In this document: piece after piece, positions 17,892 through 19,757 of the stretch
How the letters are laid out: every line of letters starts with the position of its first letter
Position numbering within the stretch: the first letter of the stretch is position 1
Assembly (NCBI RefSeq): GCF_000026545.1
Contig: NC_011601.1
Direction: 5' to 3' (one strand)
Length of the DNA: 64,000 nucleotides
Source of the DNA: Escherichia coli O127:H6 str. E2348/69
Lineage (GTDB): Bacteria; Pseudomonadota; Gammaproteobacteria; Enterobacterales; Enterobacteriaceae
Program-made: the position numbers and the translations under genes
Notes under the pieces: generated by a model
Database searches by the model: none
The model's input: the letters and a program-made list of their open reading frames with translations, nothing else
What the model was told of the DNA's origin: nothing

Positions 17892-17919
17892 GCAGCGCAT
17901 TCTGTTCCCCTCGAACCAG

Positions 17920-19469
17920 CTGTCTCTTATACACAAATCCCCACCCGGGGATTTGTGATGTCTGTCAGTCTGCTTTAGGGGGACTCTTTCCATCCGGTAG
18001 TTTCCTTCCTCCCCGGCAGCGATTTTTTGAACTTTTTCCTCACCTGTTGATCTTCTCTTATATTTCATTTTCTTCGGGTCTGTTATGGTACTTTCTGATT
18101 GTTATTCATGGGCTAACGAGCAGTTTGGACATGCCCGTCTCGGTGATCCGCGTCGTACACGACGCCTTGTGTCACTGGCCTCTTCTCTCGCTCAGCATGC
18201 AGGTCTTTCTATTGTGAAATCATCCCAGTCCACTGCTCAGGTTGAAGGTGCGTACCGCCTGATACGTAACCCGTCTGTGTCCCCGCAAGCCATTGCCGAA
18301 GCCGGATTTACCGCCACTGTAAGGGCATGTGAGGCTCATCCGCTGCTCCTCGCGCTGGAAGACACCACCACCATTAACTTCAGTCACAGTACGGCATCTG
18401 ATGACCTGGGGAATACCACCACTAACCCGAAGACGCGCGGGCTGCTGGCTCACTCTGTCCTGATGTACGCCCCCGACAGCGCCCTGCCAGTCGGTCTTAT
18501 CGAACAGCAGCGCTGGAGTCGTGCCACGGACACCTACGGTGTTAAGCACCAGCGAAAAGAACGTCCCTATGAAGAAAAAGAAAGTTACCGCTGGCAGCAG
18601 GCTTCGGAGCGCATGGCCGAACGGCTGGGGGAGATACAGAAACGGGTAATCACTGTCTGTGACCGGGAAGCGGATATCTGGCATTACCTGCATTATAAAG
18701 TCAGCCACGGGCAGCGCTTCGTGGTGCGTGCAGCACAGAATCGCCGGCTGGAAGAAGCACCCGGCAAGCTCTTCGAACTGCCGGAAGTCCTGGCAACCGC
18801 GGGAAGCCACACGCTGAATGTGATGCAAAAAGGCGGGCGGGCAGCCCGCCAGGCCCGGATGTTCATCAGTTACAGCGAAGTCAGCATAAAAAATCCCGAC
18901 AACAGCGGCCAGGCGCTCCCGCTCACGTATGTCTGTTGCCGGGAGCAGGCAGAGGACGGCGCCTGCTGGCATCTGCTGACGTCAGAAAAAGTGGCGAGTG
19001 CCGCCGATGCGCGACGTATCGTCAGCCATTACGAGCGACGCTGGCTGATAGAGGAATACCACAAGGCGTGGAAAAGTGGTGGTACATGTGTGGAATCGCT
19101 GTGAATGCAGACCCGGGATAACCTCGAGCGCATGGTGGTTATCAAGGCGTTTATCGCGGTGCGGGTGCTGGGCCTGCGGCAGGGCGGTATCAGTGAAGAA
19201 ACACAAAATGACAGCTGTGAGAAAATACTGACGCCGACAGAGTGGAAACTGCTGTGGGTTAAGCTGGAAGGAAAACCGCTTCCGTCACAGATGCCGACAC
19301 TGAAATGGGCCTGTCTGAAACTGGCGAAACTGGGGCGATGGCATGACAGCAAACGCACCGGTCGCCCCGGTTGGGTAGTCATGTGGGATGGCTGGTTCAG
19401 ACTTCAGGATATGGTTGAGGGTTACCTGGTGATGAAGTCTCTTGATCAGGAGATCTGATCAAGAGACAG
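17920..19469 (+). mobile_element. IS50/Tn5-like insertion sequence (IS4 family) with diverged transposase
   Basis: Left end CTGTCTCTTATACACAAAT (2 mismatches to the Tn5 outside end as I recall it); right end is the exact reverse complement of the Tn5 inside end CTGTCTCTTGATCAGATCT; flanked by direct repeat cgaaccag; internal Tn5-Tnp-like ORF. Confidence 0.85.
18085..19458 (+). pseudogene. Tn5-like transposase interrupted by an in-frame TGA at 19102-19104 (ORFs 18085-19104 and 19105-19458, same frame)
   Basis: N-fragment LGDPRRTRRLV...EGAYRLIRNP...LALEDTT...CDREADI...RRWLIEEYHKAWKSG closely resembles Tn5 Tnp including the DDE positions; C-fragment DNLERMVV...AVRVLGLRQ... continues the alignment after the stop. 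Confidence 0.7.
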
Positions 19470-19757
19470 CGAACCAGAGGGGAGCAGACATTCAGCAATA
19501 AACCCTTCAGTTTGCCAAACGGCGCTATTTTGTGTTGCAAAGACCCCGTAAGCGTGTATTTTTGTGAGCTGTTTCGCGTTATCACCGTGATATGACACTC
19601 ACTTTAAACATAAAATTAACATTAGATCTAAATCTTAGTATTCATACCGCGTATTGTTACCTAATATCGATGAGTCCCGATACAGATTCGTCGTATCATA
19701 GACTGACTAAAGGCCGTAGAGCCTGAACAACACAGACAGGTACAGGAAGAAAAAAAC

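Follow-up and report, generated by a model that had tools for sequence, protein, structure and literature searches.

Between the core genes fklB and cycA of an Escherichia coli chromosome lies an insertion sequence whose transposase gene is cut in two by an in-frame TGA, and the locus raises the question of what this stop represents: the decay of one copy of a mobile element, an error of sequencing or assembly, a shortened transposase with a role of its own, or a codon that is read as sense. The DNA analysed, termed here the window, is a stretch of 64,000 nucleotides in which the element occurs once, its left end and an internal 30-mer each being found a single time. The element and its boundaries are as follows.

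17912-17919, no strand: left copy of the 8-bp target-site duplication, CGAACCAG, the same 8-mer being present on both sides of the IS
17920-19469, plus strand: complete 1550-bp ISEc13, IS4 family, Tn5/IS50-like, between fklB and cycA
17920-17938, plus strand: left terminal inverted repeat, CTGTCTCTTATACACAAAT, whose first 9 bases pair with the right end
19451-19469, minus strand: right terminal inverted repeat, CTGTCTCTTGATCAGATCT when read inward, matching the Tn5 inside end
19470-19477, no strand: right copy of the 8-bp target-site duplication, CGAACCAG

Megablast searches of 5426 complete E. coli genomes matched the IS at 100% identity to records of E2348/69 (two EPEC O127:H6 chromosomes); copies that other strains carry under the annotation "IS4-like element ISEc13 family transposase" match at 99.7-99.9% over 1550 bp, and L003, L005 and L026 differ from it by two to three bases. 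The window itself matches LT827011 without a mismatch over 7.5 kb, and is thus the fklB-cycA region of E2348/69. In K-12 the site is empty, and the corresponding 8-mer, CGAACGAG, occurs once, within ccccTCGAACGAGAgggg. The left end of the element agrees with the Tn5 outside end at 17 of 19 positions, as it does with the mosaic end, and the right end is identical at all 19 to the Tn5 inside end, GATC (Dam) sites included. Near-identity over the full length to named copies, both terminal inverted repeats and a flanking target duplication thus place the element in ISEc13. What it does not have is the uninterrupted 457-codon transposase gene of that family, reading of which is stopped at codon 340, and it is therefore a defective member.

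The sites at which ISEc13 has inserted appear strongly patterned. All eight distinct sites with a perfect 8-bp duplication, namely that of the window (17904-17919 and 19470-19485) and those of L002, L003, L005, L019, L022, L024 and L026, read CCCY-N8-RGGG, positions -4 and -2 being C, and their mirror positions G, without exception, so that the element occupies the loop of a C-tract/G-tract inverted repeat; the window offers an example of such a hairpin site, ttCCCCT-CGAACCAG-AGGGGag. Junctions with a left flank only (L007-L015) also have a C-run just upstream, and in strain B19374 the fklB-cycA hairpin has received an insertion too, apparently an independent one, with the duplication CGAGCCAG. 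The duplication is 8 bp long, against 9 bp for Tn5. The number of copies is likewise distinctive: the E2348/69 chromosome holds 27-30 by megablast, with plasmid copies besides, where genomes with any match have a median of one place. ISEc13 is thus expanded in E2348/69. Some 2100 further genomes yield partial or diverged ISEc13-like matches only, an example being the degraded remnant, 93-97% identical, that adjoins espL2 in an O157:H7 genome.

The transposase gene was resolved into the following parts.

18045, plus strand: second private base, T against a consensus C, at IS position 126; all other compared copies have C
18085-19104, plus strand: truncated transposase ORF, 339 aa plus TGA, with the DNA-binding domain and DDE core (ORF list, Pfam, NF033590)
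18361-18363, plus strand: catalytic D93 (Tn5 D97), in LEDTT, from the Tn5 alignment
18661-18663, plus strand: catalytic D193 (Tn5 D188), in CDREAD, from the Tn5 alignment
19051-19053, plus strand: catalytic E323 (Tn5 E326), in IEEYHKAWK, within Y316-x2-R-x3-E-x6-K330 (YREK), from the Tn5 alignment
19102-19104, plus strand: codon 340, a premature TGA stop here; every other copy has CGA (Arg)
19105-19458, plus strand: orphaned 3' part of the transposase, 117 codons, with the end of the core and the dimerisation domain (ORF list, Pfam, NF033590)

The sequence and its ORF list bear out the first-pass annotation, which had described the two ORFs as sharing one frame on either side of the TGA; they are directly adjacent, the second beginning at the conserved Met next to the Arg codon. 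Joined, with X at the stop, they make a 457-residue product that aligns, as had been claimed, with Tn5 transposase (PDB 4dm0/1muh), and does so from end to end, with E about 3e-83 (query 6-453, Tn5 9-469). The stop lies opposite the second Arg of the Tn5 segment ...GAERQRME(K)PDNLERMV..., which is R342, again where that annotation had put it, and the case shows its Tn5 alignment to have been accurate; the bracketed K of the PDB sequence is consistent with the hyperactive E345K change. Residues D93, D193, E323, Y316, R319 and K330 align with D97, D188, E326, Y319, R322 and K333 of Tn5, and the three acidic residues all precede the stop, as had also been said. Pfam finds Tnp_DNA_bind (PF14706) at 8-65, DDE_Tnp_1 (PF01609) at 177-357 and Dimer_Tnp_Tn5 (PF02281) at 377-452 of the joined protein. 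The NCBIfam profile NF033590, 405 positions long, is covered from 1 to 297 by the first ORF and from 299 to 405 by the second, so that the position of the stop is the only one missing; the repaired protein scores 514 bits against a cut-off of 160. With its DDE triad and YREK motif, its N-terminal DNA-binding and C-terminal dimerisation domains and its score above the NF033590 cut-off, the protein is a Tn5-like member of the IS4 family.

Both the Tn5 alignment and Pfam agree with the earlier statement that a truncated product would keep the catalytic core and lose the dimerisation region. The accompanying idea that the stop separates core from C-terminal domain is correct in that the dimerisation domain lies wholly downstream, and needs correction in that codon 340 falls within the last ~17 residues of the DDE_Tnp_1 match, where there is no clean gap between domains.

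At the aligned codon, CGA stands in all intact ISEc13 copies that were examined, as expected of the proposed CGA-to-TGA nonsense change. Alleles were counted in the 5426 complete genomes by megablast with 55-mers carrying the variant base at their centre, such that each 28-base seed spans it. TGA was found at two places in two genomes, LT827011 and LT903847, both of them E2348/69 and with one copy each; CGA was found at 1182 places in 945 genomes, and AGA gave no match. The remaining ISEc13 copies of the two TGA-bearing chromosomes, 28 and 26 in number, are CGA. Exact-pattern scans of JGI metagenome contigs and species-representative genomes did not find the TGA allele; the CGA control was present in 27 JGI metagenome contigs. 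The idea that all family members might carry the same TGA is contradicted by these homologues. The simplest reading of the sequences is a private, very recent C-to-T transition that turned CGA (Arg) into TGA in one of ~29 copies in the E2348/69 lineage. These comparisons show directly the mutation and its polarity, that it is confined to one copy in one lineage, and which domains lie before and after the stop. RefSeq already records the window CDS as a pseudogene, with the label "internal stop", and of the options left open by the first-pass annotation, a domesticated or inhibitor-like copy or an inactive one, the last is thus the right one.

Is the T real? CP059840.2, a third and independent assembly of E2348/69, has ISEc13 at the same site and differs from the window over 2750 bp at a single base, a C at 19102; its gene at the fklB-cycA site is annotated as an intact 457-aa transposase, WP_000244358.1. 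This C, and the difficulty of polishing repeats present in ~29 copies, would favour the view that the T arose through a mistake in sequencing or assembly and that the gene is really intact, an outcome that the earlier annotation had recognized as fatal to its reading. The T is nevertheless found in at least three assemblies, GCA_053076565.1 having it base for base as in LT827011 and LT903847, and a look-up returned four samples with that contig. Moreover, mis-polishing of a multi-copy repeat pulls towards the majority base, here C, not towards a unique T. Nor is the C of CP059840.2 likely to result from polishing to the repeat consensus, since this assembly retains the other copy-specific base, T126. 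That base and the T at 19102 are the only two by which the window copy departs from an ISEc13 consensus copy; T126 lies 40 bp before the start codon, within the untranslated leader, and is common to all E2348/69 assemblies at the fklB-cycA locus, CP059840.2 included, which makes it older than the nonsense mutation. As far as assembly sequences, on which the T/C difference rests, can tell, a real polymorphism between laboratory stocks fits better than an error, and we consider the latter very unlikely. The T/C difference at 19102 is then a marker that separates laboratory lineages of this EPEC reference strain. Our searches of the literature on ISEc13 and LT827011 returned nothing relevant.

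TGA is both the selenocysteine codon and the leakiest stop in E. coli, and might in principle be decoded by programmed recoding, as selenocysteine or through efficient read-through, to give full-length transposase. No Rfam family, SECIS included, matched between 17800 and 19700 at E<=1, and the fold downstream is no better than that of shuffles (z = -1.2), in keeping with the earlier remark that no such context was obvious. The TGA itself, present at this codon in no other copy against 1182 of CGA, is the opposite of a conserved recoding site. Programmed recoding of the selenoprotein type, with neither a SECIS downstream nor a conserved TGA, is effectively refuted, and its probability is next to nil. 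E. coli reads through UGA naturally at a low level, which could yield a trace amount of the full-length protein carrying a different residue at position 340.

The stop is thus best explained, with a probability that we put very high, by a spontaneous CGA-to-TGA change in one sub-lineage that left a structurally complete ISEc13 as a defective, non-autonomous pseudogene copy. In EPEC strain E2348/69, the element residing in the intergenic hairpin between fklB and cycA would have undergone a spontaneous C-to-T transition in one sub-lineage, converting codon 340, the equivalent of Tn5 R342, from CGA to TGA. Translation would then end at codon 340, and the predicted 339-residue product would keep the end-binding N-terminal domain and the DDE triad, while its core would lack the final stretch and the C-terminal dimerisation domain would be missing altogether; such a protein could still bind ends and would retain its active site, but could not pair the ends. 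Because the C-terminal region of Tn5 transposase, which supplies the contacts between protein molecules in the synaptic complex, is needed to pair two ends there, the window copy would be without a working transposase, a loss of activity that we infer by analogy with Tn5 biochemistry. According to PMC6182136, the C-terminal helix of the Tn5 protein is required for synapsis (Steiniger-White & Reznikoff 2000, cited there), and a C-terminal dimerisation mutant, G462D, is used as such. Being unable to pair ends, the 339-residue product would make its element non-autonomous. The ends are intact and the same genome holds an intact ISEc13 copy, so that mobilisation in trans is conceivable, and the window copy might in principle still be moved by transposase that the ~28 other copies supply; Tn5-type transposases, for their part, prefer to act in cis. 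The window copy is an ordinary pseudogene, already annotated as such, and the event is of a known kind in a known element. Such decay in one of many copies of a known insertion sequence, flagged in public annotation, has little significance in itself.

The 339-aa protein, a 117-aa fragment re-initiated at the ATG that follows the TGA, or both, might be retained as regulators of ISEc13, occupying ends or poisoning dimerisation. The end-binding domain found by Pfam is indeed kept in the 339-aa product, and Tn5 transposase that has lost its C-terminus binds ends in monomeric form; the juxtaposition of TGA and ATG would permit termination-reinitiation, and a load of ~29 ISEc13 copies is unusually large. 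Against this, the allele is present in one of 29 copies and in a single strain lineage, and neither the sister assembly nor any other collection searched contains it, leaving neither time for selection nor a sign of it. The ATG is just the conserved Met that follows the Arg (Tn5 M343), and the 117-aa ORF is likewise called, in many draft genomes, wherever an unrelated upstream frameshift breaks a copy in which codon 340 is CGA. The arrangement of the 339-aa product is, besides, the reverse of Inh, the inhibitor of Tn5 (PDB 1b7e). It resembles Inh in being a truncated protein from the same gene family with the potential to interfere with transposition. Inh, however, is without the N-terminal 55 residues and keeps the dimerisation domain, and every IS50R copy produces it from a separate start codon, whereas the 339-aa product, of accidental origin, is truncated at the opposite end, having residues 8-65 for DNA binding and lacking 377-452; as a candidate inhibitor of the Inh type it was rejected. 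A regulatory role is accordingly highly improbable, and the suggestion of a domesticated or inhibitor-like copy finds no support, the allele being private to one copy and lineage, the gene intact in the sister assembly and the architecture opposite to that of the Tn5 inhibitor. We give hardly any credence to the more specific proposal that the allele is non-neutral amid ~28 active copies, such that 339-aa monomers would bind ends without synapsis and 117-aa fragments would cap full-length transposase, thereby damping transposition as a newly arisen, Inh-like self-regulator.

Intact ISEc13 (WP_000244358.1 / Q0H069) has the same 1550 bp, the same ends and the same 8-bp duplication as the window copy; its codon 340 is CGA, whereas the window copy has TGA there, its gene split into 339 and 117 codons, and T at IS position 126. 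Tn5/IS50R transposase (PDB 1muh, 4dm0) shares the three-domain layout, the DDE triad, YREK and a colinear alignment over the whole protein, and the inside end of IS50R is identical to the right end of ISEc13. It belongs to a separate element all the same, the proteins being recognisably related yet clearly diverged, and IS50R is the arm of a composite transposon where the window ISEc13 stands alone.

IS50L of Tn5, to which the stop had been likened, offers a parallel: an otherwise complete IS with its transposase inactivated by a single nonsense codon, and to this extent the likeness is sound. The IS50L stop is an ochre codon near the 3' end of the gene that costs the protein no more than its last ~26 residues; it is a fixed feature of the transposon and also creates the promoter of the kanamycin-resistance gene. 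The window stop, in contrast, removes 118 residues and is private to one lineage. The likeness goes no further than the nonsense codon. The window copy was rejected as an arm of a composite transposon of this type, with one copy in 64 kb and thus no paired active copy flanking cargo, and creation of a promoter by the nonsense change was rejected as well, no sigma-70-like site being present at or near 19102. The only such site found is the native one upstream of cycA, at 19587-19616. The transposase gene is also faced, on the minus strand between 18588 and 19005, by five terminator-like sites (hairpin plus T-run), where shuffles predict 1.6 +/- 1.4; these may block transcription reading in from the cycA side, or may be there by chance.

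Other broken copies of ISEc13 were encountered, in draft genomes and one metagenome (L016, L017, L019, L021 and L022), with different lesions: deletions of one or two bases at IS positions 916, 956-957, 969 and 1067, and one deletion of 50 bp. Each leaves the same 117-aa 3' ORF called as a separate gene. Some of these lesions may be homopolymer sequencing errors in older drafts.

An exact-protein look-up of the 339-aa ORF returned 17 contigs and seemed at first sight to widen the distribution of the allele. The TGA is present in the E2348/69-type contig only; the other contigs were rejected as carriers, since their sequence stops at IS position 1182, just one base short of the site, or in one case includes the next base, which is C. 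Contigs that break off exactly before the T/C site, at window 19101/19102 or IS 1182/1183, number about 15 and come from unrelated assemblies (NCBI draft, Logan, ENA metagenome; loci L007-L015 and L028). They carry C126 and their flanks differ. Control truncations at 338 and 341 aa gave one contig and none, respectively, and a 128-aa partner fragment starting at window 19072 gave two; with neighbouring truncation lengths yielding 0-1 contigs, the pile-up is non-random. For two flanks that were traced, the complete genomes offer no example with the IS at that site, and a junction probe detected no copies truncated at IS 1182/1183 in the same genomes. The pile-up suggests a recurrent assembly-graph branch at IS position 1182/1183 in other samples; control truncations, junction probe and flank tracing gave no cause for it. 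The verdict on the window copy is unaffected.

A further property of the ends bears on how ISEc13 insertions are read. The first 16 bases of the left end are those of the engineered mosaic end used in Nextera tagmentation (CTGTCTCTTATACACA; sequence given in PMC4248319), and with these bases shared, true junction reads of ISEc13 could be clipped when adapters are trimmed from Nextera data.
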